A stretch of DNA of 50,342 bases from Bacteroidales bacterium (lineage in GTDB: Bacteria; Bacteroidota; Bacteroidia; Bacteroidales; UBA932). This document shows positions 3,434-50,342 of the stretch, one piece after another. The DNA lies in contig JAILCZ010000152.1 of NCBI GenBank assembly GCA_024689985.1, forward strand, positions 1-50,342, written 5' to 3'. A program made the position numbers and the translations under genes. The notes under the pieces were generated by a model. It was not told the origin of the DNA. It was given only the letters and a program-made list of their open reading frames with translations, and did not search any database. Every line of letters begins with the position of its first letter. The first letter of the stretch is position 1.

Positions 3434-3446
3434 ATCTATTTCTTAT

Positions 3447-4784: not shown

Positions 4785-4809
4785 AGTTTACCAATGGTTG
4801 TTGCACTCC

Positions 4810-6159: not shown

Positions 6160-6187
6160 GATCCACCGATTAAAAAAAACAATGACA

Positions 6188-7447
6188 CTACTTGCGCGTC
6201 AAATACCCATCCTTATCTAAAAGCATCACATTTTGTCTTTCCTTTGGAGTATAACCAATAAAATGGGGGCCAAGGATAACATCACCCATGCTTATAATTA
6301 CTTCATCTTCATATTTGGTATGCATTCTAAGCTTCCCAACTCCAAGAGTCGAATAACTGTGAACTAAATAATCAGATTCTATTCCCAGTGAAGACACTCG
6401 AGCAAATGACGTTAATCGAGAGTTTTTAAAATTAACTAAAAATACGCCAGGATTTTCCGTCATATTTGCAGAGATTGCCAGCACAAGAATTGATTTTACA
6501 CGTTTCTGACAATGAACTTCATTAAGCCAGTATATACTATAACAGCCCCACTTGTTTTCAAAAAGCGCAGGCCCTATTGTTTTCGCATCTAAGGCACTAA
6601 GGGGAGTCGTTGGCATAGTTTGAATTCGCTTAATATCTATCCTTCTCCCCCAAAAAAGCTTAATATGGGGGAATGATGACAGAACTATTCCTCCATTCCT
6701 AAAATTCATAGTCAATATTCCGTCAGCTTTCTTGATAGTATTTGTTCCCGAAAGATAATTCTCATCATAAAACGAAGAATCAACATAATATCTATTTGAT
6801 GGATACAATAACGTATATGTTCGTTCCAGTGACAAAAGGCCATCCTTATTTAGCCCGATCCTTGCTGTACGTTTCCCCAAATCTTCGTCAAATCCAATGT
6901 TACCACATACAATGCTATAATATCGATTCCCAAACAAATCAAGACCATGACCATTCCGATGAAGTATCACCCACGATTTGGCCATGTTGTGACGGTCAAA
7001 GTAGGAAACCAACATTACGGATTTCAGGTAACCATTTTGAACATTGACTAAATAAAGAAGAGACTTTTTATCAATTCCTAAAGAATATACTAAATAGCTT
7101 TCAACCGATTTATCAATTGTAATACAGTCTTTATATAACTTATAATCCAACGGCACAGAAGGCTCTCCAACTAACATCCTATCCACTCTAATTAACGAAT
7201 CAAGAACAACCGACGACGATGATTTCATTGGAATCCAAGATGATAACGAGCCAATGTGCTCACAATCAATCCGACTCATTGCTCTCGATGGCAATACTGG
7301 TAGATCCTTCATTAGAATCCTCTTGTTCTCATAATTACGATAAATCGGTTCCTCATAATACTCGTTCCACTTCCCTCTCGCAAAACAACCAATTGAGGAG
7401 AACAACATCATTATCAATGATGCTATTATTGTCATTCTATTCAGCAT
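6188..7447 (-). CDS. Hypothetical exported protein, paralog D
   Basis: 419 aa; N-terminus like C, C-terminus (LLDKDGYLTRK) identical to E. Confidence 0.85.
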   Translation of the reverse strand: MLNRMTIIASLIMMLFSSIGCFARGKWNEYYEEPIYRNYENKRILMKDLPVLPSRAMSRIDCEHIGSLSSWIPMKSSSSVVLDSLIRVDRMLVGEPSVPLDYKLYKDCITIDKSVESYLVYSLGIDKKSLLYLVNVQNGYLKSVMLVSYFDRHNMAKSWVILHRNGHGLDLFGNRYYSIVCGNIGFDEDLGKRTARIGLNKDGLLSLERTYTLLYPSNRYYVDSSFYDENYLSGTNTIKKADGILTMNFRNGGIVLSSFPHIKLFWGRRIDIKRIQTMPTTPLSALDAKTIGPALFENKWGCYSIYWLNEVHCQKRVKSILVLAISANMTENPGVFLVNFKNSRLTSFARVSSLGIESDYLVHSYSTLGVGKLRMHTKYEDEVIISMGDVILGPHFIGYTPKERQNVMLLDKDGYLTRK

Positions 7448-7474
7448 AATCCACCGATTTAAAAAACAATGACA

Positions 7475-8848
7475 CTACTTGCGCGTCAAATACCCATCCT
7501 TATCCAATAGCAGCACGTACTTGCTCGATTTAGGCATATTTGATTCGTACAAATTAAAATCATGTATCACATCATACTTCTCATCAATATCAGTTAGCTT
7601 AATATCCTCCATTATTTCGTACTTGCAATCGTAATAATCACGCACGACCTTCATCGGAGAGACTGCCTTTTCACCATAGTCATTGAAAACGGTAATACTT
7701 CCACAACGACATAAAGAATGTCTATACTGATAACAGTCTTTCTGCCCCCCAATAAGAGAAGCATTAACCACAGAAGTCATACGATGCTCATTAAAATTGA
7801 CCAAAAACAATCTTGGGTTTCCATATCCACTGATGGGATTTACCAATACAAGGTATGATTTAAGACCTCTCCTACAATGAACCCTTTTAAGCCAAAAGAA
7901 TACATTCTCTGTCCAATTCTCTTGACACAGTGCAGGGCCTATTAACTCAGTTTCCTCTTGAGTAAAACGGGATAGCGGTGTAGAGATAACCTTCTTAATG
8001 TCAATACTACGGCAAAAACCACTGTGGCATTTCGGCAAATCTAAAAGGACTATATCCTTACTATTATAATTGGCATAATCCAACGTATCAGATTGAAACA
8101 TTCTTCTTAATGAATCGCCATAAGCCTTACATAATAAGGGAAAAGAGTGTTTTTCGCGAGGGATAAACAGACTATGATTCTTAATAACAGAGAAGCGCCC
8201 ATTTTCATCCATTTGAAAATCTGTCAAATGACGAGATTGATTGGAAACATACCTTTGAACATTAACCTTGGAGCGATAACCGTTCTCATATAAACCAATC
8301 TTGTCCCCTTGAATTGTTGCCGTCAACGCATCCTTCCTCTCTATTGAAACACGGCCGGACACCTGTAAGATAGATTGAAGATAACCATTTCGTAAATTTA
8401 TAAGGAACACCGTAGAATCACCGCTAAAGTCCAACGCACAAACTAAATAACTATCAACTCCATTCTTTATTTCTATCCGTTTATCAAACAATTTAAAAAC
8501 CAAAGAATCACCATGAAGAAACATATCGGGATACATAGGATAAAACTCAAGGAATAAATGATAATGTAGATTTCTTGAGTTCATCTCCTTCCTTAATAAG
8601 GAATCCAAGATGGCAGACGACACCTGCCCCAAAGAGATAACGAACGAGGATTGGATATCCCTTATATCAACCCGCTTCAGTTCATCCAAAGGCAGGGACG
8701 GCATATCTTTCAAGACAATGTTCTGTCCCTCATAGTTGAAATAAATTATTTCCTCGTGGTACTCGTTCCACTTAACCCTGGCGTAACCACTAACGGAAGA
8801 AAATAACATCACAAATAATGATGTTATTGTAATCATTTTATTTAACAT
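7475..8848 (-). CDS. Hypothetical exported protein, paralog E (first gene of the array)
   Basis: 457 aa; first 89 nt identical to paralog B. Confidence 0.85.
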   Translation of the reverse strand: MLNKMITITSLFVMLFSSVSGYARVKWNEYHEEIIYFNYEGQNIVLKDMPSLPLDELKRVDIRDIQSSFVISLGQVSSAILDSLLRKEMNSRNLHYHLFLEFYPMYPDMFLHGDSLVFKLFDKRIEIKNGVDSYLVCALDFSGDSTVFLINLRNGYLQSILQVSGRVSIERKDALTATIQGDKIGLYENGYRSKVNVQRYVSNQSRHLTDFQMDENGRFSVIKNHSLFIPREKHSFPLLCKAYGDSLRRMFQSDTLDYANYNSKDIVLLDLPKCHSGFCRSIDIKKVISTPLSRFTQEETELIGPALCQENWTENVFFWLKRVHCRRGLKSYLVLVNPISGYGNPRLFLVNFNEHRMTSVVNASLIGGQKDCYQYRHSLCRCGSITVFNDYGEKAVSPMKVVRDYYDCKYEIMEDIKLTDIDEKYDVIHDFNLYESNMPKSSKYVLLLDKDGYLTRK

Positions 8849-9165: not shown

Positions 9166-9238
9166 ATCAAGCACATTAGGAGCAATCTTTCCCAATTCTC
9201 CCTTGTATGAATGATAGTGTTGCTTCTTTCGTTTCGCT

Positions 9239-9690
9239 TAAATTTGGAAATCGCAAGCCCATAGCCCGCGAAGGCCAAGCAGAGGTGCTATTTTTTGGCG
9301 GACGATGGTTTGCGGCAGACGAAGGCCACGCAAAGGTGCCTATTTTTGGCGGACAGCGGCTGGCGACTGACGAAGGCCACGCAGAGGCGCCAAAATTTGG
9401 AAATCACACGCCCGCAGCCCGCGAAGGCCAACCAAAGCCCCCGATTTTTGGCGGACGATGGTTTGCGGCAGACGAATGCCACGCAGAGGTGCCTATTTTT
9501 GGCGGACAGCGGCTGGCGACTGACGAAGGCCACGCAGAGGCGCCAAAATTTGGAAATCGCAAGCCCATAGCCCGCGAAGGCCACGCAGAGGCGCCTATTT
9601 TTGGCGGACAACGGCTGGCGACTGACGAAGGCCAAGCAGAGACGCCTATTTTTGGCGGACAGCGGCTGGCGACTGACGAAGGCCAAGCAA
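9239..9690. repeat. Tandem array of nine 51-bp units, three variants in order A-B-C-A-B-C-A-C-C
   Basis: The anchor CGAA(G/T)GCCA recurs at 9269, 9320, 9371, 9422, 9473, 9524, 9575, 9626 and 9677 (exact 51-nt period). Confidence 0.95.
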
Positions 9691-9847
9691 GGCGGCCATT
9701 TGATGGAAAGTGCAGGCGGGAGGCAACGGGCTGCCAGGCAGAATGGCTGTTATTTGGAGAGAGGAGGAGGTGGGATGGAGGAAAAAGAAAAAGGACCGAG
9801 GAAAACCTCGGCCCTGATTATTGGGATGTATTCGAATTCGTATACGA

Positions 9848-12800
9848 TTAGAATGTAAGTCTGAGTCCGAACTGCAGTCTCCAACGTGAATAGAAGTCAC
9901 TGTAAGTAAGCTCGTTGCCGAGGTACTTGTAGGTTGGAGTGTAGTTGCCGTCGGTACCCTGTGTCATTGCTGTGACTGAGAGGATCTGGCGGTTGTATGC
10001 TGATGCATAGTACATACCCCAGCTTCTGTTGAGAAGGTTGGAAGCGTTGAGGAGGTCTACGATGAACTGAACCTTGCGGCCCTTAGCCTTGTCGTAGATG
10101 AAGTCCTGGGTGAAGTGTACGTCGAAGTGATTCTCGAATGGAGCGATTCCGGCGTAGCGCTCTGACCACTGTCCGCGATGTGAGCTGAGGTAGTCGTCAC
10201 CCTGGATGAGAGCCTCGAACTGAGCTGCTGACTCTGTGTCTGCCCAGGTCATAAGGGCGATCTCGTCCTGTGTAGGGATGTACATAACTGAGTTGCCGTA
10301 CTGACCGTCACCGTTGAAGTCCTTGGACTCCTTCATAGTGTAGCAGAATCTCTGGCCGCTCTCTCCGGTGTATGTCACGCTGATTGATGATGACATAAAG
10401 CCGAGGTAAACAGGTGTGGTGTATGAAACGACTGCCTGAACCTTGTGAGGATGGTCGAAGAGTGAGTATGAAAGCTCCTCTGCGTTGGTGTCGAGTGAGT
10501 AGTTGTACTTCCAGTTAGAGTATGCGACTGATGATGTACCGTCGTTGACTGAGTATGAGTGTCCGAAGGTGTATGATGCCATCAAGTCGAGACCGAATGG
10601 GAATGACTTCTCAATCTTGCCAGAAAGGTTGTATGAATAACCCTTGTTGGTGTTGCCGAGGGCTACGATTGCAGAGTAGTCGCCGCTTGATACTGAATAG
10701 TAAGGAGCTGTCGCATCAACATCTGAACTTACAGCGTATGTCTTTGCTGACTTTGAGACAGCAAGGTTGTTGAAGAATACGTTGTTGAGAGTCTTTGAGA
10801 AGAGGCCTTCAGCCGTGAACTTCCAGCCGTCGAAGAGTTCCTTCTCGAAGGCGAGGTCGGCACGGAGTACCTGTGGGTACTTGAAGTCGTCGCTGAGTGT
10901 GTTGATGGTTGCGCCTGAACCTGAAGCAGAGAATACGCCAGCGAGTACGATGTCGTTGTAAGGATCGCTGGTAAGAGGAATGCTGCCAGGGTTCTTCTTT
11001 GAGATTGACTTAGACTCCATACCGGTGTTGTTGTATGCGTTTGAAAGCCAAACGAAAGGAACACGGCCGGTGAAGAGACCTACACCTCCACGGAGGAGAG
11101 TCTTGTGAGTGTCGTCAGTGAACCAACGGAAACCTACGCGTGGTGACCAGAGCGGTGTCTTCTTAGGAACGACGCCTACATACTGGTTGTTTGCTGTTGC
11201 AAATGTAGTTTCGTTGAACGTAGGGTTCTTAGTAGGCTTGTTGAGAAGCATAGGGATGTCCATACGGAGACCGTATGTGAGAGTGAAGTTCGTGTTAGGC
11301 TTCCACTCGTCCTGTGCGTAGAGACCGATCTGTGCAGCTCTTGTGGTAGCAGCCCAGCGGGTGTCGCCGCCTGTGAGCTCAGGATCTGAATATCTATAAT
11401 TGAACTGCTTGATCGTATCGTTGAAGAAATCGTTTATGGAATTGTATGTATATCCACCGTAAACGTACTGGAGGAACAGATTCTTGAAGCTGTAGATCTC
11501 ATTGTGAGTACCGAAGGTGATCTCGTGATTTCCCTTGTACCAAGAGAAGTTGTCCGTGATGGTAAAGGTATTGGAATCCATAGAGTTGGCACCTGAAGAA
11601 TACTCAGTACCGAGGTCGATGGCCACATTGTCCTGGATATATATATTTGCACCGTTGTATGGGCAGTCACGCTTGTCGCGGACGAGGACTGCAGATGCAC
11701 GGAACATATTTGACATCTCATCATTGATCTGGCTGTTGAGCTCGGCTACGAAAGTATTCGTAGTGTTTGACATCTTGTATGATGAGTTGTTGAAGTAATA
11801 TGTGTAAGCGCCTGAACCGTACTTGTCAGCATAAGCGTCAGCAAGCTGATAACGGAACATAAGCTTGTTGGTCTTGTTGATGTTCCAGTCGAGACGGGCA
11901 AGAGCGTTGATAGAACGGTCCTTGGCCTTGTGCTCGCCGTAAGACTCACCTGTGTTGCTTACGCCGTAGGTCTCCTCGTACTTCTGAATCATCGCAGCAG
12001 CCATAGCCTCGTTGAAGACGTTACCATAGCTTACACCGTTCCATACAACTTCCTCGCTGAGAGTCTTGGCATCGTAAGAGCCGTTTGAAGGAGAGTAAAC
12101 ATTAGGAACTTCCTTCTTGTAATACTCACCGCTGACGAAGAGGAAGAGCTTGTTCTTGATGATCGGGCCACCTGCCGTGAAACCATAGGTGTTGATAGCC
12201 TCGTCAGAATACTTTGTGCGGTTTTCAACATCCTTGCCGGCTGTAGTACCGATGAAGTTCTCATTGAGGAAATAGGTATAAGCAGAACCCTTGTACTCGT
12301 TTGTACCAGCCTTGGTGATGGCATTGATAGCACCACCCGTGAAGCCGGACTGACGGACATCGAACGGAGCGATTACCACCTGGATTTCCTCGATTGCATC
12401 GAGAGAGAAAGGATTGGCGCCCGTAAGTCCACCATTGGTACCTGAGCTTGAAAGACCGAAGGTGTCGTTAGCGACAGCACCGTCAATCTGAATACTGTTG
12501 TAGCGGTTGTTTGCGCCACCGAAAGAAATACCACCAGACTTGTTGATAGAAGCAAGCGGAGTGTACTTGACTACGTCATTGACACTTCTGTCAATCATAG
12601 GAGTACTTTCAATCGATGCCCTGCTCCAGCTTGTACCTGCACCTGTCTGGTTAGCGTTGAAACTCTTCTCCGCAACGACCGTAACAGCGTCGAGTTCGTT
12701 TGAAGAAGTCATAACAGTATTGAGCTCAAAAGCTTCACCGAGCTTGAGCACAACGTCGTTGTACTGCACAGTGTTCATTCCGATGAAGGAAACCTCAACC

Positions 12801-13142: not shown

Positions 13143-13151
13143 CAGCACGAA

Positions 13152-13198
13152 ATGTGGACAGATTTGATTGCTTGCAACCACGTGAAAAAATGCTAAAA
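13152..13198 (+). ncRNA. SAM-II-class riboswitch aptamer in the metK leader
   Basis: P1 AUGUGG (13152-57)/CCACGU (13178-83), loop GAUUUG...UUGC, 3' GCUAAAA. These are SAM-II hallmarks, placed just after the promoter of SAM synthetase. Confidence 0.8.
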
Positions 13199-13225
13199 TT
13201 CATATTTGTGTTTTGTGTTTTTCGT

Positions 13226-38953: not shown

Positions 38954-39556
38954 TTATTCTACTGAATTCATATCAATGAGATTGTTGAGCAGGGCATATA
39001 CGGTAAGACCTGCGACGGTCTTGATGCCCGTCTTTCTCGTGATATTCTTTCTATGGGTGATTACTGTGTAAATTGAAATATTGTACTCGTCCGCAATCTC
39101 CTTGTTGAGCATACCCTTGGCGACACAGACAAGAATTTCCTTCTCCCTGATGGAGAGTTCGTTACCCTCGGCCTTCGGAGCCTCGGCACGTGCGTCGAGG
39201 GCAGAGCGCATCTTGCGGATGATTACGGTCGGGATGTCATAGATGCTCACGACCTCATCGAACTGCTTGAGAATTTCCTCCCCCATCGCGATCGTCTCAA
39301 TTGCTATCACGGGAGCATCCGTAAACTCTCCCATAAGAGCTCTGGCATTTTTTCTGGAATCATAGTCGAACACCTGAGGGTCTATGATGACTATGTCCAC
39401 GTCCATATTCTTCAGTCGCGTCTCGCTGCTTCGGGTCAGGTCGGACAGGATACCGCAGACCTTGAATTCGCCAAGGTCCGAAAGGATGCTGTCCAGGCCC
39501 TTCGCAACCATCAGCGAAGGCACTATGAGAAGGACATTTTTCTTACTGTCGGCCAT
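38954..39556 (-). CDS. LuxR-type HTH regulator (CdhR/PG1237-like)
   Basis: C-terminal LSIREKEILVCVAKGMLNKEIADEYNISIYTVITHRKNITRKTGIK; degenerate receiver-like N-terminus; overlaps the hemerythrin-like gene. Confidence 0.9.
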   Translation of the reverse strand: MADSKKNVLLIVPSLMVAKGLDSILSDLGEFKVCGILSDLTRSSETRLKNMDVDIVIIDPQVFDYDSRKNARALMGEFTDAPVIAIETIAMGEEILKQFDEVVSIYDIPTVIIRKMRSALDARAEAPKAEGNELSIREKEILVCVAKGMLNKEIADEYNISIYTVITHRKNITRKTGIKTVAGLTVYALLNNLIDMNSVE

Positions 39557-40262
39557 TTTCTTCGATTCTGGTAACTATTGGAACAAGGATATTGTCCTCG
39601 ATTCTGGTATGCTTCACGAGGTCGATGTCAAGACGGTAGATCGCAATAAGGAGACGATTCCTGAGGGCATCGCTGCACTCTGCAGGAAGATACTTCATAA
39701 TTATGTTCTTGAGGTCGTTGAGAGCCTCGCTGATATTGCTGTGATTGTCCTCGAACTGGGCAATTGAGAATCCCTTGCGGTCCTCTCCGCGGAGGAGGGA
39801 TGCGACATAAGGGAAAACGACCTTCTCTTCATATCCGAAGTGATTGTCCAGCTCAGCCTTGTAATCATTAAAGAATTTCCAGATCACGGCCTGCTGCTTC
39901 TCTCCGCAAGGCTCAAGGAGCTTGCAGATATCCTCCTGCATCGCAATTACCGCATCCTCGAGATAATATGAGTGCGAATTGTGAAGATATTTGATGATGT
40001 CCGTTGGGTTGCCTTCCGAAAGGGCAGCTCCCGAAGGAACATAATCATCGAAGGTATAGACGTTGCACACCAGCAGAAGTGTCGCCACGTCAACGTCTGA
40101 CTTGGCGCAGGCGTCGGCGACGGTATGGTCGCTAAGTGACACGCTCACACCCAGTCTGGAGAGAATTGGAAGCAGATGATAGTTGAGGTCAATGAGGTCT
40201 GCAAGCCTCATCTGCTCCGAAAATAGAACGTCTCTCTGGATTGTCTTTTTTAAAGTTGTCAT
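39543..40262 (-). CDS. Hemerythrin/Ric-like di-iron domain protein (PG1236-like)
   Basis: YLHNSHSYY, HFGYEEKVVFPY, H..IEDNILVP; ScdA-like N-terminus. Confidence 0.85.
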   Translation of the reverse strand: MTTLKKTIQRDVLFSEQMRLADLIDLNYHLLPILSRLGVSVSLSDHTVADACAKSDVDVATLLLVCNVYTFDDYVPSGAALSEGNPTDIIKYLHNSHSYYLEDAVIAMQEDICKLLEPCGEKQQAVIWKFFNDYKAELDNHFGYEEKVVFPYVASLLRGEDRKGFSIAQFEDNHSNISEALNDLKNIIMKYLPAECSDALRNRLLIAIYRLDIDLVKHTRIEDNILVPIVTRIEENGRQ

Positions 40263-40303
40263 AATTACTGTTGAGTAGGGATTTCAAAGATACAATTTTT
40301 CTT

Positions 40304-40340
40304 AAAACAAAAGGAGGCCACCTTCACAGGCAGCCCTCCT
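40304..40340 (-). terminator. Intrinsic terminator
   Basis: Minus RNA AGGAGGGCUGCC-UGUGAA-GGUGGCCUCCU-UUUGUUUU. Confidence 0.85.
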
Positions 40341-40414
40341 CGGAACAATTAAAAGGATCTAAACTTTCATTTTATTATAGCCTTTACAAACTATATGGCT
40401 TCAATCTCAATCTA
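40304..40414 (-). ncRNA. Candidate ~110-nt small RNA
   Basis: Own -7 element TATCTTTG (40427-40420), upstream operator-like box and strong terminator; no meaningful ORF between them. Confidence 0.6.
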
Positions 40415-40449
40415 TGTTGCAAAGATATGGGTAGAACGGATGCCAGTCA

Positions 40450-40467
40450 ATCCCAAGAAGTTGGTAT
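40450..40467. promoter_or_regulatory. Palindromic operator-like box (sRNA promoter)
   Basis: ATCCCAA-GAAG-TTGGTAT, 11/14 match to ATCCCTA-N4-TAGGGAT, 22 nt from the -7 element. Confidence 0.65.
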
Positions 40468-42524
40468 TATGAAGCATAACTGTGTAACCCGCCGAGAATG
40501 AAGTTCACGCCGAAGTACGTGATCAGCACGCACAGAAAGGCGAGAATTGCAAAGACGTGCATCACGCGAGGCTTTTCCAGGGCCTTGAGCGACACTTTGT
40601 GCATCGCGGCCGCATAGACAAGCAGGGTGACGAGGGCCCAGGTCTCCTTCGGATCCCAGGACCAGTATGTACCCCAGCTGACATTCGCCCAGATGGCGCC
40701 AAGGAAGGTGCCGATTATGAGCAGGAACTCAGCCGGATATAGAATTACCGTGGAAATTGCCGCGAGTTCGTCGCTGGCCTCGTCGTTGCGCACGACCAGG
40801 CCCATAACTCCCAGCAGGGCCATCATACCGAAGAGGGTGTATGAAATCATCATACAGGCCACGTGGATTGACAGCAGAGGGGACGAGAGTACCGGCATCA
40901 GCGGGGTGATGCGCGGATTTGACTCGCCGAGGACGGCGACAAGCATAGCGAAGCCGGCAAGCATCAGGCCCAGAGGCTGGATTACCGGGAACCGTCTTCC
41001 GACAACGGCGGTAAAGACTGAAGACATCCACGCAATGAGGAGCATCATCTCGAAGCCTCCCGCCATAGGGATATGGCCCTGGACGAACCAGCGGAGTCCG
41101 AGAACAACCGTAAGGTAAACACCAACGACGGCAGAAAGCAGGCTGAGGGCATTCACGACCGGACGCGGAAGACGCCTGCGACGCGATATGGCAAGTCCCA
41201 TCCAGATGAAGACGATCATTCCAAGGGTGACGCAGATCATTGCCAGCATCATCGGCCGGCCCAGTTTGTTGTAGATTTTCTCCGCCTTGAGATGAGACGC
41301 GTCCGGAAGAACATCCGATGCCACCTTTTCCTGATACAGGCGCATTTTGGCGATTACCCTTGAGGCTTCCTCATAATCTTTGTTGAAGAAAAGCTCGCCC
41401 AGATACGGAAAACACTTCTTGATGAATGTCCAGGTATCGGTATCCATATCTACCGGAAGAATCTGTGCGGAAGAGTACCATACCACCTTTCCGTCCTCCT
41501 CATAAGGGAAGACCTTCACGATTTTTTGGGCGCAGGCGCTCTGGAAGGCGTATATCTTCTCGGCTTCCTTAGCCGTTCCCACTTCCTTCTTCTTTATCTT
41601 CATCGGCACATCAGCCCAGGAGCTGCCGTAGAACATCCAGCCCGTGAACACCTGTTCCGTCGTATATCCCCCTACCGACGGCTTGCCATATACTTTCATC
41701 ACATAGTCCCTGGCCATCGTCTGAAGAGGACAGATTCTGCCGTTGTAATAGACGTAGAGGTCTCCTATCTGTTCTGCGACATCCTCAGGAAGCACCTTCG
41801 GCGCGGCTGAAGCCGTATGCGAGAAGCCCAGGATCAGGGCAATGACGGCCATTCCCTTTCCGAGACGCGAAAGAGCCCTGCGGAAAGTTGATTTGGAATC
41901 AAAAAAGAAGGATACGAGTCCCACAAGAAGGCAAAAGTACCCGATATATGTCAGCGTGACTCCCCAAGGATCATCACTGACGGTGAGGATGGTTCCATTT
42001 TCATCCTCATCATATGCGCTCTGGTAGAAACGGTATCCTCCTGTCTTAAGAATCTTGTTCATACTGATCACGGCCTCCTCCGATCCGTTCACGAGAACCG
42101 TGCTGCTGTAATCCATCGGCATTTCGGAGCCCGGATAGCGGCTGACCTCGAATGATTTCAGGGTGATGGAAAACGGAAGTTCCGCCTTCCCGCCTTCCTC
42201 GAGTTCCATCTCGCTCACCGTCTCTCCAACCCTGATCTTCATAAGACCGGTCCTTGACGTAAGGTGAGTCACAAGGGCTCCTACGAGGATGAGCACGAAG
42301 GAAAGATGGATTATCGCAACTGCAGGGCGGCGGATTGCCTTGCTTTTGAAAAGCCAGACAAGGCCGGAAATGACGGCCACGGCCCACAGAAGGATGAAAA
42401 GAGGAGAATGATAGAACAGGCCGAAGGCCTTGTCCGGGCCGGAGACTTTTTCAACGACCGTGGCAGCCATCATCATCAGGATAATGGCTGCCATTGATAT
42501 GAGCGATATTCTTTTAGATAGCAT
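40467..42524 (-). CDS. ccsA: Fused System II cytochrome c maturation protein (CcsBA, ResB plus CcsA)
   Basis: IIHLSFVLILVGA, YRFYQS, LSIHV, WWD domain GAIWANVSWGTYWSWDPKETW, GLHSY. Confidence 0.92.
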   Translation of the reverse strand: MLSKRISLISMAAIILMMMAATVVEKVSGPDKAFGLFYHSPLFILLWAVAVISGLVWLFKSKAIRRPAVAIIHLSFVLILVGALVTHLTSRTGLMKIRVGETVSEMELEEGGKAELPFSITLKSFEVSRYPGSEMPMDYSSTVLVNGSEEAVISMNKILKTGGYRFYQSAYDEDENGTILTVSDDPWGVTLTYIGYFCLLVGLVSFFFDSKSTFRRALSRLGKGMAVIALILGFSHTASAAPKVLPEDVAEQIGDLYVYYNGRICPLQTMARDYVMKVYGKPSVGGYTTEQVFTGWMFYGSSWADVPMKIKKKEVGTAKEAEKIYAFQSACAQKIVKVFPYEEDGKVVWYSSAQILPVDMDTDTWTFIKKCFPYLGELFFNKDYEEASRVIAKMRLYQEKVASDVLPDASHLKAEKIYNKLGRPMMLAMICVTLGMIVFIWMGLAISRRRRLPRPVVNALSLLSAVVGVYLTVVLGLRWFVQGHIPMAGGFEMMLLIAWMSSVFTAVVGRRFPVIQPLGLMLAGFAMLVAVLGESNPRITPLMPVLSSPLLSIHVACMMISYTLFGMMALLGVMGLVVRNDEASDELAAISTVILYPAEFLLIIGTFLGAIWANVSWGTYWSWDPKETWALVTLLVYAAAMHKVSLKALEKPRVMHVFAILAFLCVLITYFGVNFILGGLHSYAS

Positions 42525-44172
42525 TGATGAACTTCACGATTGCATCACGGTCCTCCTTGTCCAGGGCACGGAATGCTTCGACCGAAGAGCGGGCATCGCT
42601 CTCAGATGAGCCGTGCCACATAATTGCCTCGATCACATTGCGTGCGCGCCTGTCGTGGAGTCTGTCCGAATGGCCGGCACACAGAGGAGAAAGTCCCCTG
42701 CCCCAGAGAGGGGTGGTGCGGCACCATCCGGTGCGGATGTCATTGACCATATGGAGTTTATGCTGAATCATATCCGTATAAGGCCAGATGGTCTGGTTAG
42801 GATACTTAGGCAGCTTCTTGACCTTGCCGTCGATTGTCTTCTGACCGTTCACGAAGAAGAGGTTAGGGTCATAGGCATCGTCATCGCCCGTAGTCCAGCT
42901 TGGCTTGTGACAGTGGGCGCAGCCGATCTCGCGGAAGAGGTAGCGTCCCTTCTGCACCGTCTCGTCGTCGAGGTCACGGGCAGCAGGCACTGCAAGTCCT
43001 CTGTGCCAGATCATAAAGTCAGCATAATTCTCATCGGTCATTTCAACCGGAAGATTCGTACTTGTAAGATAGTTGTAGATATCCGTCTCCACGTCACCGG
43101 TATATTCGACGCCCGTAAGCTCCTCGAACTGGTCCTTCGGGAAGTAGTCGTAGAACACGGCCTGTACTTCAGGGTCCTGTGAGGATGTCTTGGCGTAGTA
43201 ATCGCCGGAGAGGTTGAGATAATGATATCTTCTGTCGGAACGGGTCACGTTCGTGATGTTCCAGATTGCGTTCGCACCAGGACCGTCCTGCACCTTGCCG
43301 CGTGAAAGGGCGTAGGTGAAGCGGCGGGCCACCTTGGTACCGTCGCCCTGCTTTGAGTTGGAGTACATACTTACCCACTGACCGTTGGCATAGTATGCAG
43401 GATTGAGGTTCACTCCGTATTTTTCCTCGAGCTGATACTGGGCGAGGAGGTCGTCGTCGGAGATTGCGTCAAGAAGACCGGTTCCGTAGATTCCGATCGT
43501 GGATTCGAGTTTCACTCCGTACTCGCCCTCAGCCAGTTCAGTCTGGTCGGTCGCAAGTACCTTTCCGCCATAGAAGGCGTCAAGAGGGATGGTTACCTCC
43601 GGATAGATGAGGCTGTAAGTCTCGCCGTCATCGAATTTGTTGCCCCACTCGTCGGTGTACTCAAGCCAGTCGATCGTGATCTTGCTTTCGTCGATAGGAG
43701 CCTTGAAAGGGCCGTTGGCCTTTGTCTGAGGCATACCTGCCACTGAGCCCACATAGGCCTCGGTAGCCTTGTTATAGACTACGAGAAGATAGCCGTTGCC
43801 ATATTCGTTGGCCTTGTATGAGGTCACCCTCTTTCCGTAGCCGTAGCCTGGATGGCAGTCGATGCACGAAGCACGCACATAGGCAGGGCCGAGGCCGTTG
43901 AACGGCTTGGTGCTCGTATTGTACGTGCGCTCGAAGAAGTATTCTCCGTAGTTGAATTCGTCATCCATTCCTGCCTCGCTTACAGCAGGAGAGGCGTCCT
44001 CGTATGCGGACGCCGTCGTGTTGAAGGTGGTGCCTAATTCACCACCAGCGTAAGTCTCGATCTTAATCTCGTCGTCGGTGATTTTCCATTCCGCCGAAGA
44101 GACCTTGTCGTCGTTGCAGGCTGCAGCAGCAGCCAATGCAACGATCGAAAGGATAATTGTTCTGTTGGTCAT
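42514..44172 (-). CDS. Di-heme oxidoreductase (DUF1111-like) lipoprotein
   Basis: Lipobox AAAC-NDDK; NGLGP...CIDCH and GRYLF..IGCAHCH; RTTPLWG, LHD.RAR...EAIMWH. Confidence 0.9.
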   Translation of the reverse strand: MTNRTIILSIVALAAAAACNDDKVSSAEWKITDDEIKIETYAGGELGTTFNTTASAYEDASPAVSEAGMDDEFNYGEYFFERTYNTSTKPFNGLGPAYVRASCIDCHPGYGYGKRVTSYKANEYGNGYLLVVYNKATEAYVGSVAGMPQTKANGPFKAPIDESKITIDWLEYTDEWGNKFDDGETYSLIYPEVTIPLDAFYGGKVLATDQTELAEGEYGVKLESTIGIYGTGLLDAISDDDLLAQYQLEEKYGVNLNPAYYANGQWVSMYSNSKQGDGTKVARRFTYALSRGKVQDGPGANAIWNITNVTRSDRRYHYLNLSGDYYAKTSSQDPEVQAVFYDYFPKDQFEELTGVEYTGDVETDIYNYLTSTNLPVEMTDENYADFMIWHRGLAVPAARDLDDETVQKGRYLFREIGCAHCHKPSWTTGDDDAYDPNLFFVNGQKTIDGKVKKLPKYPNQTIWPYTDMIQHKLHMVNDIRTGWCRTTPLWGRGLSPLCAGHSDRLHDRRARNVIEAIMWHGSSESDARSSVEAFRALDKEDRDAIVKFINAI

Positions 44173-44181
44173 ATGTATAAA

Positions 44182-45339
44182 TTACTGTGCAATTGTCGTT
44201 TCTGCAGCTTCGAGGACCTCCACGAGAGCAGCGCAGGCTTCCATTGCAGCATCACACTTGGTGTTTGTCTTGCTGTAGTTCTTCACGAACGGATAGTCCA
44301 TTGCGTTGATTGCTGTGAGGGCTGCCTCGATGGCTGATGAGATGGCGTCGTCAGTATCTGCGTCATTCTTTGCAAAGTATGCGTGGAGTGATGATGCTGA
44401 GTTTCTCTCTGATGAGGTGCGGCCACCATAATAGACATTCTCGACAGATGTGATGTTGTCATAGAAGTCAGTGATTGAGTTGTAGCTGTATGGTGACTCG
44501 ATGTAGCTCTCGTCCTCTCCGGTGTGTGCCTTGCCGATCTTTGATGTTCCTACCTCGTCGGCGATGTCAGCTGATGACTGGAGGATTGACTGCATAGCGT
44601 GTGTCCAAGAGCGGAAGGTCGATCCGGCCTCGCCTGATGCGAGAAGGTTCTCTCCGTAGTAGAGGTCGCCGCCTGCGACTGTGGTGTTGAGCTCAAGCTC
44701 TTCCTCTACGTATGTGAGACGGTCGCCTGCTGCCTCGCCTCTCCAGGCTGCGTCAAGCTGTGCGGTTCTGTTCTTGAGGTCTCCTGACACGGCTACAGCA
44801 TAGATGAATTCGTTGTCAGTAATCTCTGATGCGCTCTTTGCCTCACCGTCTTCGAAGAGGATGTATTCGATTCCGTGGAATCCGAGAAGGGCGTTTCCGA
44901 GGTTCTCACCAGCGTAAACGGCTCCGTCCTCGCCTTCGAGGTTCTTGAGCATCTCAGGGCTGGCCATAAGGTTGTTGAATGCGTCCTCATCGAGTGGCCA
45001 AGAGTCGATGTGAGGGTCGATACCGAAGTCCGTCGCAGCTCCGAAGAGGAATGCCTCGCTCTTCTCCCACTGCTCACGAGCCTGGAGGAAAACCTTTGCG
45101 GCTGCCGCTACGTTTGCGTCTGTCTTTGATGCTGCGGCTGTGCTGAGGGCTTCCTCGAGTTCCTCGGTATAGTCTGCGAGTGATTTGTATGTAGGATAGA
45201 CGGTATTTGTAAGGAAGTCGGCTGCGATTTCCTTGAATTCTGCATCCTTTGCTGATGAGTCATTTGCATCGTCGTTGTCGCAAGAAGTGAATGCGAGTAC
45301 TGATGCGGCCATTGCGGCCATTACGAAAAATTTTTTCAT
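44182..45339 (-). CDS. Imelysin-family (IrpA/LruB-like) iron-regulated lipoprotein
   Basis: Lipobox FTSC-DNDD; WEKSEAFLFG, IDSWPLD, GFHGIE (GxHxxE), ESPYS; very acidic. Confidence 0.9.
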   Translation of the reverse strand: MKKFFVMAAMAASVLAFTSCDNDDANDSSAKDAEFKEIAADFLTNTVYPTYKSLADYTEELEEALSTAAASKTDANVAAAAKVFLQAREQWEKSEAFLFGAATDFGIDPHIDSWPLDEDAFNNLMASPEMLKNLEGEDGAVYAGENLGNALLGFHGIEYILFEDGEAKSASEITDNEFIYAVAVSGDLKNRTAQLDAAWRGEAAGDRLTYVEEELELNTTVAGGDLYYGENLLASGEAGSTFRSWTHAMQSILQSSADIADEVGTSKIGKAHTGEDESYIESPYSYNSITDFYDNITSVENVYYGGRTSSERNSASSLHAYFAKNDADTDDAISSAIEAALTAINAMDYPFVKNYSKTNTKCDAAMEACAALVEVLEAAETTIAQ

Positions 45340-45376
45340 GTTGATTATTTATTTGATTACACTACCTTCTATTGAA

Positions 45377-46663
45377 TTATCTCCTGAAGAAGCCTGTATA
45401 GGTGATGCCGATATTGATGCTCGGCTCGTTGTTGTACTGGCTCTTGAAGAATCTATGTGAGTATTCTGCCTTGAGAATGATGTTGCTTATTGGACTGTAG
45501 TTGATTCCGACGGCCATCCTGGTCTTGTCTGACCACTCATAGTCAGTCTGGCCTGATGGTGCGACATAAGAGTCATAGTATTCGCCGCGGACGAAGGCGA
45601 AGAGTTTCTGGCCTTCGAGCTTCCTTGAATGAAGGAAAGTGAACACATCATATCCTGCCTCTGCTCCGAATGCCATCGCATTCTCGCCCACGAGGGTATG
45701 GGAATATGGAGAGAATGTGGAGTTGTCGGAGTTCTTGTTGCTGGTTCCGATTGCAGCGGCGTTGTCGAGGTAGCCGTAGTCGGCATTTCCTCTGGCAATC
45801 ACCTTGCTGCCTTTGTATTCGAAGTCGAATGAACCGATGAGCACCGTGCCGGCGACACCGGTGCTGGTCGAGCCTGACGAGCTGACCGTTCTTGGATATG
45901 CGTCGTTGTCGGTGCCTCCTACATAGCCAGAAAGGCCGAGGCGAAGGTTTCTGAAGCTGTAGTTATCCACTCTGAAGGCAAAGGCGAGATCGTTTGCCAT
46001 CGTGTATTCGTAAGGCGATGCTGATCCGCCGCTCACCCAGCCGTCATTCGAGAAGAAGCGGCTGTTTAGTCCAGGAAGGACCTGTGCCGTATAGCCCCAG
46101 TCTCCGAGTCGTCCGAAGACGCTCACTCCGATCTGGTGCCAGGTGCAAGGGATGATCGTACTTTCACCTTCCTGACGGTAAACCGTGAAGAATTTGTCCG
46201 GTTCGTGGCGGTAGTTCGTGAGACCGACCGGGACGATGACCATTCCGGCCCTTACATTTATTGCAGGATTGAAGGTCTTCTGGAGCCAGAACTGCTCGAG
46301 ATAGACTTCTCCTCCCCTTTCAATTTCGTGTTCCACTTCGATCGCCTCATCGCCTTCCACTTCGATGGAAGCCTCGACGCCTCCGTGTTCGAACTCAATC
46401 TCAGAGCCCATTGACCAGCCTTTTCCGAAGTCATAACCCATCATTACCACTACGTGTGGGAGATCCACCTGACTATGGCCCTGAGAATCTTTATATCTGT
46501 CGGCGTACATATATCTGTACGGGGAGTTGCTGTAGAAATTATGAGAATAGACGGCCTCGCCATAACCTCCGATTACGAATCGGGTGGAGTCCTGAGCGGA
46601 CAGGTTGAAAAATGTCAGAACCGTCAATAAAACACACAAAACTAACTTTTTCATCTGAAGCAT
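45377..46663 (-). CDS. Outer-membrane porin-like beta-barrel
   Basis: Signal peptide (start 46663 or 46654); IGGYGE, SEIEFEHGG, VYLEQFW, VPVG..N..HEP..F; acidic loop. Confidence 0.8.
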   Translation of the reverse strand: MLQMKKLVLCVLLTVLTFFNLSAQDSTRFVIGGYGEAVYSHNFYSNSPYRYMYADRYKDSQGHSQVDLPHVVVMMGYDFGKGWSMGSEIEFEHGGVEASIEVEGDEAIEVEHEIERGGEVYLEQFWLQKTFNPAINVRAGMVIVPVGLTNYRHEPDKFFTVYRQEGESTIIPCTWHQIGVSVFGRLGDWGYTAQVLPGLNSRFFSNDGWVSGGSASPYEYTMANDLAFAFRVDNYSFRNLRLGLSGYVGGTDNDAYPRTVSSSGSTSTGVAGTVLIGSFDFEYKGSKVIARGNADYGYLDNAAAIGTSNKNSDNSTFSPYSHTLVGENAMAFGAEAGYDVFTFLHSRKLEGQKLFAFVRGEYYDSYVAPSGQTDYEWSDKTRMAVGINYSPISNIILKAEYSHRFFKSQYNNEPSINIGITYTGFFRR

Positions 46664-46707
46664 AATTTTTACAGATGCAAAGTTAGTTTCGTGCGGAAGT
46701 AGGGGCA

Positions 46708-46725
46708 ATCATTAAATTTAGGGAT
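46708..46725. promoter_or_regulatory. Palindromic operator-like box (porin operon promoter)
   Basis: ATCATTA-AATT-TAGGGAT, 12/14 match, 22 nt from the -7 element TAACTTTG (46685-46678). Confidence 0.7.
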
Positions 46726-46791
46726 TCTTCAGGCCCCCGAATCCCCATATGATGTTAGCCAAAAACGAACAGCCTCGTCAATAGCGAACGG

Positions 46792-49323
46792 CTACACTAT
46801 GAGCGTCGCTATTTGGTATGCTACAAAGGCCGCGATCCAGGCGACAACCATCGTCGTGGCACAGATGATTATGGCCCAGCTCCACCTGTTGGTCTCGTTC
46901 TTGATTGCCACGAAGGTAGCGATGCACGGGAAGTACAGGAGGACGAAGACCATAAAGGCTACGGCTGCCGGAAGGCTCACCGTGGAGAGGAGGGCCTGCT
47001 GCAGCTGGGTGTCCTCGGACATCGTGTCTGCGTCAGTTTCGCTCACGGCTGCGCCCTGGCTGTACATCACGCCAAGGGTGGATACGACGAGCTCCTTGGC
47101 GACGACTCCGGTAAGGAGTCCGATGTCCATCTTCCAGTTGAATCCAAGAGGGGCAAGGGCCGGCTCCACGGCCTTTCCGAGCAGGCCGATGTAGGAATGT
47201 TCCTGCTGCTTTTCGTAATATACATTCACGCTGTCCGCCCACATTGCCTTCTGCTCGGCGGCGAAGGCGAGGGCCGTGCTGTCAGGGGTCTGGATGGTCT
47301 CAAGAGCTGAAATCTGCTCTGATACCGCTGCGAAATTCTCCTGTGCGAGGTTGAGTTTTTCGCTTGTCGGGAAATAGCCCAGGAACCAGATGATGACTGA
47401 TCCGATGAGGATGGTCGTCGCCATCTTCTGGAGGTACTGACGACCCTTCTCCCAGGTATGGCGCCAGATTGCCTTTCCGGTAGGCACACGGTATGGAGGA
47501 AGCTCCATTACGAACGGCAGGTCGTCATCCTTGATGAAGCGGCTGACGACGACTGCTGCCAGAAGTGCCAGGACGATGCCGAGGAGATAGATCAGCAGCA
47601 GGGCAAGAGCCGAATGTGCCGGGAAGAAAGCTCCGGCCACAAGGACGAATATAGGAAGTCTGCCCGCGCAGGACATAAATGGAATGATTGCAATCGTTAT
47701 GAGGCGGCTCTTGCGGCTCTCAATCGAGCGGGTCGCCATAATTGCCGGCACGTTGCAGCCGAAGCCCATCACCATCGGGATGAATGACTTGCCGTGCAGG
47801 CCGATCTTGTGCATCAGCTTGTCCACGATGAAGGCCGCACGGGCCATATATCCGGAGTCCTCCATCAGGGAGATGAAGAAGTACAGGATCATAATGTTCG
47901 GCAGGAAGACGAGGACGCTTCCCACGCCGGCGATACAGCCGTCCACCACGAGGTCCTTGATCCAGCCGTCAGGCATAAATGAGGCCACGAATTCTCCGAA
48001 TGTCGCCACGAGCCAGTCGATCCAGTCCATCGGGTAGTTTCCTAGGGTGAATGTCGCCTGGAAGATGATGTACAGCAGGAGGATGAATATCGGGAATGCC
48101 AGCCACTGGTTTGTGACGACAGAGTCGATCCTGTCAGTCAGCGTCCTGTGGTGCTGGGTTTCCGTATGACGCTCGTATGTCTCAGCAAGGGCTCCCTGGA
48201 TGAATGCATATTTGGCATCGACGATGGCAGATTCGAGGTTCGTGTGCATAAGCTTCTCTATCCTCTGTCCCTCGTCATATCTTGCCGCGATTATGCTGTC
48301 GTGATTCGGCAGGGCCTCTACCACTTTCTCAATCTGGGAGTCGTTCTCCAGGTATTTGATCGCCAGATATCTGGTAGAGTATTTCGAGCGGATGTCCTTG
48401 TCTTCCTGGATGAGGAGCTTGATCCTGTCGATGCTCTTTTCGATTTCCGCGCCGTGGTTGATGTGGATATGGCGGCTGAGCTTAGGGTCTGCCTGGGTGT
48501 AGATATGGATGATCGTCTCCAGCAGCTCAGGGATTCCTTCGCCGTCTCGGCAGACCGTCGGGCATACAGGTATGCCGAGGAGGTAGCCGAACTGCTTGAT
48601 GTCAAATTTATCCCCCGTCGCGCGGAGCTCGTCGTACATATTCAGAGCCATCACCACGCGCAGGTTCATATCGATCACCTGTGTCGTAAGGTAGAGGTTG
48701 CGCTCGATGTTTGATGCATCGACGACATTCACTACGACGTCAGGTGTATTTTCAATGAGGTTTTTGCGGACATAGAGTTCTTCGGGAGAATAAGCCGAGA
48801 GAGAATATGTTCCCGGCAGGTCAACGAACACGAATTTATATCCCTTGTACTCGAATTTTCCCTCCTTGGCATCCACCGTCACGCCGCTGTAGTTGCCCAC
48901 GTGCTCGTGGCTGCCGGATGCTATGTTGAAGAGGGATGTCTTACCGCAGTTAGGATTTCCCACCAGGGCTACGCGGATCACGTGCCCGCGCTCCTCTGCC
49001 AGTCTGGACATCTCCGCGTCGAGTCTCTCCTCGTCGAAGATATCCTCAGGTACGATGGCATCAAGACCTGTCTGTTCAATGAGGGACTGCTTGGCCTCGG
49101 ATGCACTGATTACTTCAATCTGCCTGGCCTCCTCCCTTCTGAGAGAAAGCTTATATCCTAGTATTTCGTATTCGATTGGGTCCTTTAGCGGTGCATTCAG
49201 AATGACGCGCACCTTCTTTCCCGTGATGAAGCCCATCTCAATGAGCCTCTTTCTGAACGAGCCGTGGCTGCCGACCTTGGCAATCACACCCTGCTCGCCT
49301 GTCTGTAAGTCAGATAATTTCAT
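46792..49323 (-). CDS. feoB: Ferrous iron transporter, FeoA-FeoB fusion
   Basis: N-terminal FeoA (KRLIEMG...APLKDPIEY), G1 GNPNCGKT, GNYSGVTV, DLPGTYSL, NMYD, GFGCNVP, FVMELPPY. Confidence 0.96.
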   Translation of the reverse strand: MKLSDLQTGEQGVIAKVGSHGSFRKRLIEMGFITGKKVRVILNAPLKDPIEYEILGYKLSLRREEARQIEVISASEAKQSLIEQTGLDAIVPEDIFDEERLDAEMSRLAEERGHVIRVALVGNPNCGKTSLFNIASGSHEHVGNYSGVTVDAKEGKFEYKGYKFVFVDLPGTYSLSAYSPEELYVRKNLIENTPDVVVNVVDASNIERNLYLTTQVIDMNLRVVMALNMYDELRATGDKFDIKQFGYLLGIPVCPTVCRDGEGIPELLETIIHIYTQADPKLSRHIHINHGAEIEKSIDRIKLLIQEDKDIRSKYSTRYLAIKYLENDSQIEKVVEALPNHDSIIAARYDEGQRIEKLMHTNLESAIVDAKYAFIQGALAETYERHTETQHHRTLTDRIDSVVTNQWLAFPIFILLLYIIFQATFTLGNYPMDWIDWLVATFGEFVASFMPDGWIKDLVVDGCIAGVGSVLVFLPNIMILYFFISLMEDSGYMARAAFIVDKLMHKIGLHGKSFIPMVMGFGCNVPAIMATRSIESRKSRLITIAIIPFMSCAGRLPIFVLVAGAFFPAHSALALLLIYLLGIVLALLAAVVVSRFIKDDDLPFVMELPPYRVPTGKAIWRHTWEKGRQYLQKMATTILIGSVIIWFLGYFPTSEKLNLAQENFAAVSEQISALETIQTPDSTALAFAAEQKAMWADSVNVYYEKQQEHSYIGLLGKAVEPALAPLGFNWKMDIGLLTGVVAKELVVSTLGVMYSQGAAVSETDADTMSEDTQLQQALLSTVSLPAAVAFMVFVLLYFPCIATFVAIKNETNRWSWAIIICATTMVVAWIAAFVAYQIATLIV

Positions 49324-49384
49324 GTTCTCGACCTCTGCAATAATTGTCCGGATGCAAAGGTAAGGAACATAGTTCTTTTATAAC

Positions 49385-49402
49385 ATCCCTATTTATGGTT
49401 AT
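49385..49402. promoter_or_regulatory. Palindromic operator-like box (feoAB promoter)
   Basis: ATCCCTA-TTTA-TGGTTAT, 11/14 match, 22 nt from the -7 element TACCTTTG (49362-49355). Confidence 0.65.
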
Positions 49403-49751
49403 CTTTCTTCTTTCTCTCCTGTTCCGCCAGCCACTCGGCCCTCCTCTTCGCATAATACTCCTTGCGCTTCGGATTCTCCGGGAACCAGCCCTTCAGGATA
49501 CGCTTTTCCTGGTCGAAGACCTCCTTCACACCCCAGAAGAAAGAGAACGCGGCAGCTCCAAGAATCGTAGAACCGACAAAATTGCAGGTAAATAAGGAAG
49601 CCACAAGACAGATGATTCCGCTCACGAAGAAGAACCACCAGAACTTCCTTCCGAAATAATACTCGCCCTTGATCACGATAGGATGAAAAATACCAATGAT
49701 CAAAAAAGTTGCCGCACCTACGACTATGCCACCAAAATAAAGATTCTCCAT
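49389..49751 (-). CDS. DUF4491-like small membrane protein
   Basis: Start MENLYFGG; FLIIGIFHPIVIKGEYYFG, W..KEVFDQEKRILKGWFPENPKR. The longer ORF in the track reads through repeats. Confidence 0.85.
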   Translation of the reverse strand: MENLYFGGIVVGAATFLIIGIFHPIVIKGEYYFGRKFWWFFFVSGIICLVASLFTCNFVGSTILGAAAFSFFWGVKEVFDQEKRILKGWFPENPKRKEYYAKRRAEWLAEQERKKKDNHK

Positions 49752-50054
49752 AACTAAAATTCGAGCTGCAAAGATACGCCAAATTTTCACAACCATCCCT
49801 ATCACTAATGATGGTTCATCTCCCCCTCTCCCCAAAACCAGCCCTTCCCACATAGCCCTCCTCTCCCCTCCTGGTAAATCTGAATTCTCCCGATATCTAT
49901 CCTTCGGCTCGGCAGAGGAGCCGATTGGAGAGGCACCGGCATCCGCTTTCGAGTGAGTGAGCGGGCAAGCGGAGCGCGACAGTGCCGCTATCCGGGAAGC
50001 CGCCCGAATGACCGAAGCCGTTCGTTTCCAGGCAACTGACAAGCATAGCTGATT

Positions 50055-50342
50055 TGTTTGTCCCGAAAACAGCCGTCCTCCGTGGATTTCACGGCTAGCA
50101 GGTGGGTGTTGTCCCGAAAATGCCCGTCCCACGTGGAGAAGATCGGGTTGCAGGTGGGTGTTGTCCATAAAAAGGGCGTCCTGCGTGGATTTCGCGGGTC
50201 GCAGGTGGGTGTTGTCCATAAATAAGGCGTCCTGCGTGGATTTCGCGGGTCGCAGGCGGGTGTTGTCCATAAATAAGGCGTCCTGCGTGGATTTCGCAGG
50301 TTGCAAGTGGGTGTTGTCCATAAAAAGGGCGTCCTGCGTGGA
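50055..50342. repeat. Tandem array of at least six 51-bp units, truncated by the window end
   Basis: The anchor TTGTCC recurs at 50058, 50109, 50161, 50212, 50263 and 50314. Confidence 0.95.

Follow-up and report, generated by a model that had tools for sequence, protein, structure and literature searches.

RyhB and its analogs PrrF, NrrF, and FsrA are short, terminated RNAs of iron-starvation regulons; according to the accessible part of a 2026 review, no RyhB homolog is known in Bacteroides, and Bacteroidetes lack Hfq (PMC13750123). At low iron, ferredoxin, rbr, sdh/frd, vor, and pfor are repressed in all or most of three Bacteroidetes species, and the available text of the study describes knowledge of the iron-response regulators of this phylum as scarce (PMC10434189); the terms "motif" and "palindrom" return no match in that article. 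The genes for a hemerythrin-domain protein and a LuxR-family protein, BT_0519-20 in Bacteroides thetaiotaomicron, correspond to the CdhR pair (PG1236/PG1237, the latter being CdhR) of Porphyromonas gingivalis (PMC10434189). Both pairs are iron-induced and needed for hmu expression, and the published portions available to us describe no binding motif or RNA output for the CdhR system. Loss of CdhR lowers expression of hmuY, of the TetR operon PG1178-81, and of PG1236, and binding of CdhR to the hmuY promoter was not reproduced in the part of that report available (PMC11018363). At the same regulator locus of B. thetaiotaomicron lies IroR (BTnc022), an iron-induced RNA whose deletion mainly alters capsule loci and for which the accessible part of the preprint gives no direct target (bioRxiv 10.1101/2025.09.08.672848).

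We analyzed a 50,342-nucleotide stretch of Bacteroidales DNA (hereafter the window; assembly GCA_024689985.1, contig JAILCZ010000152.1), in which an iron-regulon small RNA had been proposed between ccsBA and a regulator gene pair. On the minus strand, which carries all features described here unless stated otherwise, the ccsBA stop codon is followed by a 20-bp near-palindromic box of the AATACC-N8-GGGATT type (40449..40468) that shares 2 nt with it, a 21-nt spacer, the Bacteroidetes -7 promoter element TATCTTTG (40420..40427), an A/U-rich stretch of ~75 nt, and an intrinsic-terminator-like hairpin with a U tract (40304..40341). The box, the -7 element, and the terminator of the original prediction were confirmed; its 22-nt spacer was not, as we count 21 nt, a value that depends on where the edge of the box is drawn. 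At the five box-type start sites of B. thetaiotaomicron seen in the accessible data, transcription begins at the 5th base past TTTG. This rule sets the start in the window at 40415, with the center of the box near -43, and yields a predicted RNA of ~112 nt (40304..40415).

The body of the RNA contains a 5′ arm (ending in GAUUGAAGCCAU; 40395..40410) complementary to the ferredoxin and frdA mRNAs over the start codon and the codons that follow, and a 3′ arm, AGAUCCUUUUAAUUGUU (40344..40360), antisense to the ferredoxin leader. A hairpin unique to the window's genome (40376..40395) lies between them and loops out of the predicted duplex. As proposed earlier, the body has no real coding capacity: the only ORF noted in it has 3 codons (40359..40370) and is not conserved, no ORF is conserved across the 47 homologous loci described below, and 25 of these have no ATG between the start and the end of the core. 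A small antisense ORF on the plus strand was dropped, as it is not conserved either. The tract preceding the terminator, previously described as likely unpaired, is free in the centroid fold and only partly free in the minimum free energy fold. In the window's genome, the terminator would additionally stop read-through from ccsBA. Just 5′ of the hemerythrin gene is a second -7 element (40285..40292) that the original prediction lacked; no box was seen upstream of it, and it is likely the basal promoter of the regulator pair.

The claim that this promoter architecture is common to feoAB and the porin operon was borne out, since box, 21-nt spacer, and -7 element recur in both. The box-driven operon (40467..46726; box at 46726-46707) codes for a porin, named by analogy as it has no Pfam match, an imelysin, a di-haem protein, and CcsBA, and is of the iron-induced BT2473-82 type, while the box of feoAB (46792..49403; box at 49403-49384) is a weaker match with a GATG end. 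A consensus of the window's boxes matched 6 sites with at most two mismatches in 1.77 Mb. At three of these sites a -7 element stands at a distance of exactly 21 nt, although two of the three are circular because the consensus was built from the window's own boxes. Further boxes with 21-nt spacing precede genes for an MptD-like ECF component (G000:C72:2732; L103) and a TetR protein (G000:C107:3629; L104); these are likely members of the same regulon as judged from their promoters, both family matches being below curated cut-offs. The regulon lists derive from the consensus and regexes and are hence incomplete. In the accessible part of a published supplement, the same box lies 21 nt 5′ of the -7 element at the mapped B. 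thetaiotaomicron start sites of fldA, BT_0519, BT_0503, and xusA (PMC7366714), and iron depletion induces these genes 326-, 20-, 2.4-, and 663-fold, respectively (PMC10434189). We propose that the box marks an iron-starvation regulon and that the shared geometry reflects co-regulation. Its center at -43, upstream of the -33 region, is a position typical of activators, and the box is unlike the Fur consensus. In several homologs (L059, L072, L077, L054-L056, L074, and L075), a second box-like half is found 5′ of the box of the RNA, possibly a divergent or tandem site.

The regulator pair downstream consists of a BT_0519/PG1236-like hemerythrin-domain protein (39543..40262; PF01814) and a CdhR/BT_0520-like LuxR-family regulator (38954..39556; PF00196). 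The former is 34% identical to the BT_0519-type protein of L092, a metagenome contig that matches published B. thetaiotaomicron promoter sequences, and is likely the sensor of the pair, the LuxR-family protein being the likely activator that would read the box. Of 150 genomes of the order, 97 have the hemerythrin gene, and the box often lies immediately 5′ of it; in many families the box stands before this gene itself. The window's genome has two Fur-family genes, and no flavodoxin was found in its assembly, which is 84% complete.

Conservation of the RNA within the genus is a stronger test than the box count: 31 of 401 same-genus genomes contain the core pattern, and none contains a reversed control. 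Thirty core-pattern loci were returned; after removal of two chance matches that fell within unrelated sequence and one contig edge, and addition of a BLAST match (L026), 28 remained, the window included. All 28 have the box, 21 nt, and the -7 element, although the regex for these core-selected loci left the spacer free (21 to 22 nt for the first 12, 20 to 23 nt for the rest). A sequence-only model matched 33 of 150 well-assembled genomes of the genus. Nineteen further loci were found with the profile, 18 with a box detected by regex at a fixed 21 nt and the last with a GATG-ending box recognized by eye, so that the box with its 21-nt spacer is present at 46 of the 47 homologous loci by regex and at the 47th by eye. 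Only the two arms and the terminal hairpin, which is at the same place in the folded homologs, are conserved, and the inserts between the arms vary. RNAalifold returned no consensus pairs for the alignment, and no conserved structure was seen besides the terminator. When 61 relatives were searched with this region by BLAST, most of the output was terminator-like noise, and two matches were real.

Outside the genus, the sequence-only model R1 yielded chance matches only, none of 25 with a box. An order-wide pattern (box end, 21 nt, -7 element, and RGYCATWWA) hit 9 genomes outside the genus versus 10 for the control, and, as it cannot match the Bacteroides variant described below, it is uninformative on absence there. 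No such RNA was seen at 23 distant hemerythrin loci. Motifs of the GCCAU or CCAUA type were also observed in box-driven non-coding stretches, possibly further variants, at L242 (G020), L280 (G525), L424 (G026), and L421 (G070). A second RNA variant within the genus (L406:370-530 and L411-L414) has a 5′ hairpin and one arm that pairs across the ferredoxin AUG, and shows no linkage to the regulator pair within the flanks examined.

The predicted RNA resembles RyhB and its analogs in being short, terminated, and part of an apparent iron-starvation regulon, and, as for RyhB in the accessible part of the review, pairing is predicted at the initiation regions of mRNAs for non-essential iron proteins, including sdh/frd (PMC13750123). 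It differs from RyhB by having no Rfam match, by its likely LuxR/hemerythrin activator box instead of release from Fur, by occurring in an Hfq-lacking phylum, by its two arms that would clamp both sides of the AUG, and by its chief predicted target, ferredoxin. No Rfam family reached its gathering score over the window element or 9 related loci, and RyhB-type covariance models gave no match at E values up to 10. The best Rfam score for the window RNA, obtained with BTnc049, was 18 bits, against a gathering score of 82. GibS pairs at translation-initiation regions without Hfq, and the window RNA is likewise predicted to act there, its match to GibS and other Bacteroides sRNAs in Rfam 15 being far below gathering.

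Of the iron-responsive sRNAs reported in Bacteroides, IroR is transcribed at the same regulator locus, starting ~65 nt past the BT_0520-type stop codon, but it is unlike the window RNA in sequence and architecture. In the available part of its description, IroR is 263 nt long, has no box at its own promoter, and contains neither arm (bioRxiv 10.1101/2025.09.08.672848). Aligned locally, IroR and the window RNA match weakly (6 of 500 shuffles were as good), and there is no model match. As the box, both arms, and the 263-nt architecture are not shared, identity with IroR was rejected, as was identity with SnoA, which sits at hcp according to the accessible text (PMC13370916). Since IroR (L092:3031-3294) follows the strongly iron-induced BT_0519-20 pair, read-through could add to its own induction. 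IroR-like sequence was observed in only 2 of 26 loci viewed in the G526 family. The window RNA is thus RyhB-like by prediction, not a RyhB-family member by sequence, and not IroR. We found no report on this RNA or box in a literature search that left most subscription journals outside.

To predict targets, we used our own gene caller, on which the start codons rest; it returned 1,334 genes and missed a 57-residue 2[4Fe-4S] ferredoxin, which was added back to give 1,335 start regions. Co-folding of the whole RNA with these regions (mean, -7.8; standard deviation, 3.1) placed frdA at rank 1 (-22.7) and ferredoxin at rank 2 (-22.5). Iron-protein targets, as envisaged for a RyhB-like RNA, thus head the genome-wide ranking, and their repression would follow from pairing; ferredoxin, now the main predicted target, had gone unnamed before. 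Among the 1,334 called genes, frdB ranked 11, dfx 13, pfor 18, and rbr 61, and the top 10 included several non-iron genes. None of 90 shuffled bodies reached the z score of ferredoxin or frdA, and 1 to 2 of the 90 matched the other four targets tested, the set of six having been picked after the ranks were seen, with five of its members also on the published list of genes repressed in low iron. In the predicted duplex, the 3′ arm lies on the ferredoxin leader and the 5′ arm on the AUG and first codons, with the private hairpin looped out between them.

When each arm was scanned separately, the 15 best-ranked genes of one arm or the other included those for desulfoferrodoxin, frdA, frdB, PFOR, rubrerythrin, an HdrC-like protein, nth, ispG, and cydB. 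The top 40 of the 3′ arm held 6 members of a blind set of 33 iron-motif proteins (p = 3e-4); in the shuffle test its top 40 held 5 iron-motif genes, and 0 of 60 shuffles did as well. The 5′ arm alone showed no significant enrichment for iron genes (15 of 108 shuffles as good), and ATGGC starts are commoner in iron genes anyway (9/33 versus 126/1,334). Both arms are A/U rich and pair with many leaders, and the 3′ arm is also complementary to rubrerythrin codons in many genomes without a profile match. The tract before the terminator had been described as complementary to generic A-rich initiation regions; this complementarity was found, and it is not only generic, as the tract matches a specific site in the ferredoxin leader. 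Complementarity to the initiation regions of iron-protein mRNAs is conserved.

The arms change along with ferredoxin across lineages, as seen in sequence comparisons. Among RNA-bearing genomes, 24 of 31 ferredoxin leaders contain an AAGGA-type site complementary to the 3′ arm, versus 1 of 20 in genomes lacking a profile match. The latter are not true negatives, since five of the 20 carry a divergent RNA driven by a box and two others have candidates of this kind. Near the hemerythrin gene, a box-driven non-coding stretch was found in only 1 of 17 profile-negative genomes. Such a site is rare in Bacteroidetes leaders, occurring at 77 of 1,334 genes in the window's genome; the window's own ferredoxin leader lacks it, yet pairs well. 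Within the genus, cognate RNA-ferredoxin pairs beat non-cognate ones in 21 of 31 cases (permutation p = 0.009), but the genomes are related and the presence of the RNA needs only 3 to 4 changes on a 65-row hemerythrin tree, so that Fisher and rank p-values overstate the support, which comes from a few events and not from dozens. In G391, the arm and the ferredoxin leader are altered together. Across families, with 9 genomes of the G526 family, mean duplex energies were -24.7 and -21.7 kcal/mol for cognate pairs, against -12.3 and -15.9 kcal/mol for crossed ones. In the 5 genomes with the second variant, the RNA is predicted to pair with the ferredoxin of the same genome at energies of -18 to -20 kcal/mol; these ferredoxins pair equally well with main-type RNAs (-21.4) and with their own RNA (-19.2).

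A counterpart was found in B. thetaiotaomicron. On the minus strand of L092 (3350-3510; B. thetaiotaomicron ~643520-643675), a separate box-driven unit of ~100 nt converges on IroR, ~60 nt past the 3′ end of the latter. In the accessible data, its start is mapped as an orphan at 643619, and coverage drops at its terminator (PMC7366714). The transcript has no sRNA entry in the part of the 2020 table available and was still labeled "orphan" among the 2024 rows listed. It shares with the window RNA the box, the 21-nt spacer, the terminator, the approximate length, and the proximity to the same gene pair, and its core is near-identical to cores of relatives that are antisense to ferredoxin start codons. 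In contrast, its arms have other sequences, and the genus model gives no match. The G526 family includes Bacteroides, and its hemerythrin shares 75% identity with the L092 protein; in this family, the LuxR query matched 35 of 121 genomes, and 19 of the 30 regulator loci returned have a box-driven counterpart (box found in 18) that lies downstream of luxR or converges on it. An arm with the sequence UUACGUA-RCCA pairs with the Met-Ala-Tyr-Val codons of the ferredoxin start of that family; an alternative assignment of the Bacteroides arm to Cys-Gly-Tyr-Val codons was dropped, the ferredoxin match being better. Sequence homology between the window RNA and the Bacteroides-type RNA is not detectable, and the model for the window's genus misses the latter, which leaves their homology unproven. 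The window's layout and a similar 3′ arm recur in a third family (G459), where pairing with ferredoxin is weak (-10.8).

We conclude that the locus is a conserved stand-alone non-coding unit. When iron is limiting, it most likely (with a probability of roughly 0.7) gives rise to a trans-acting RNA of ~112 nt, whose predicted action is to repress the mRNAs of ferredoxin, fumarate reductase, and other iron proteins through base pairing that spans the start codons. In the proposed mechanism, the hemerythrin protein would be the likely sensor of low iron; its CdhR-like LuxR partner would bind the box at about -43 and activate feoAB, the porin-imelysin operon, the MptD-like transporter gene, the TetR gene, and the RNA. 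The 3′ arm would pair with the ferredoxin leader at about -24 to -4, while the duplex formed by the 5′ arm would span the AUG plus the six codons after it; arms in these positions would cover the ribosome-loading site. Pairing would repress ferredoxin, and as synthesis of Fe-S and di-iron proteins dropped, uptake genes, plus flavodoxin where present, would rise. Leakage through the terminator could feed back positively on the regulator pair.

Other readings of the locus must be weighed against a stand-alone RNA. In the window, the overlap between the box and the ccsBA stop codon, together with a terminator placed to end that operon, would suit an element that is only the 3′ untranslated region and terminator of ccsBA with a chance promoter match. 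This is extremely improbable, since across the 47 loci the upstream neighbor is ccsBA once, feoAB seven times, and a divergent gene at many; at the sequence level, an independent promoter, an intrinsic terminator, and a non-coding body recur in these varied contexts. At 38 of the 47 loci the pair, hemerythrin gene first, lies directly downstream, and in 9 of 9 RNA-bearing genomes checked the hemerythrin gene is present elsewhere, the linkage expected of a CdhR regulon. A strict regex finds the second -7 element at 21 loci and misses it at 26. A leader or attenuator of the hemerythrin-luxR operon would fit these positions; nevertheless, nine loci are placed elsewhere, one of them between a divergent porin gene and a convergent feoB. 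The Bacteroides-type counterpart lies downstream of luxR or convergent on it, and the position 5′ of the same genes is not constant; no conserved leader peptide or alternative structure was found, the terminator being the only conserved structure. We consider a leader very unlikely. The RNA is thus neither the ccsBA 3′ untranslated region nor an obligate leader, and the independent gene originally proposed is supported.

The remaining alternatives accept a box-driven RNA. It might act on iron-protein mRNAs while its box serves a regulator other than the adjacent LuxR/hemerythrin pair, for example a Fur-family repressor, given the two Fur-family genes in the genome and the disputed direct binding of CdhR at hmuY (PMC11018363). 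We regard this as unlikely, because the fixed position of the box at -43 is of the activator type, the box precedes the hemerythrin gene itself in many families, the RNA adjoins the pair in two families, and iron-regulon genes fall on CdhR loss in the accessible data of the same report (PMC11018363). Alternatively, the RNA might mainly stabilize or activate the mRNAs with which it pairs, bind a protein, or have other main targets: pairing predicts contact and not its sign, the A/U-rich arms pair with many leaders, non-iron genes figure in the top 10, and Bacteroidetes lack Hfq according to the part of the review available (PMC13750123). Such a different action appears distinctly unlikely, as the duplex spans both AUG and leader with ferredoxin and frdA at the top of the ranking, the arms co-vary with ferredoxin, and ferredoxin and frd mRNAs drop in low iron (PMC10434189, accessible part).

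Taken more broadly, the trans-acting RNA and its counterparts in Bacteroides and relatives may well be the missing Bacteroidales equivalent of RyhB, a view to which we give somewhat better than even odds: one hemerythrin-LuxR activator would turn on uptake and flavodoxin and, through an RNA co-evolving with ferredoxin, turn off ferredoxin and fumarate reductase. If true, this would be a Fur-independent, activator-driven iron-sparing circuit and would account for how a dominant gut order switches from ferredoxin to flavodoxin, the unit occurring in gut and rumen Bacteroidales. It suggests that the neighbor of IroR, rather than IroR, is the iron-sparing RNA. For the repression observed in low-iron Bacteroidetes, the analysis names a candidate RNA, a promoter box, a likely activator, and predicted target sites, with a counterpart in the genetically tractable gut model B. 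thetaiotaomicron whose start site is already mapped.

Other features of the window were also noted. A SAM-II long-loop riboswitch (RF01726, 62.5 bits) lies at 13148-13206 on the plus strand, upstream of a metK-like gene. Five tandem paralogous proteins of ~420 to 470 residues with similar signal-like N termini are encoded at 2015-8848 on the minus strand; their codon use is unlike that of the rest of the genome, and they were missed by the gene finder. Two tandem-repeat regions (9207-9851 and 49750-50321) contain repetitive ORFs with units of ~17 and 15 residues, respectively, and are probably repeat DNA rather than genes.
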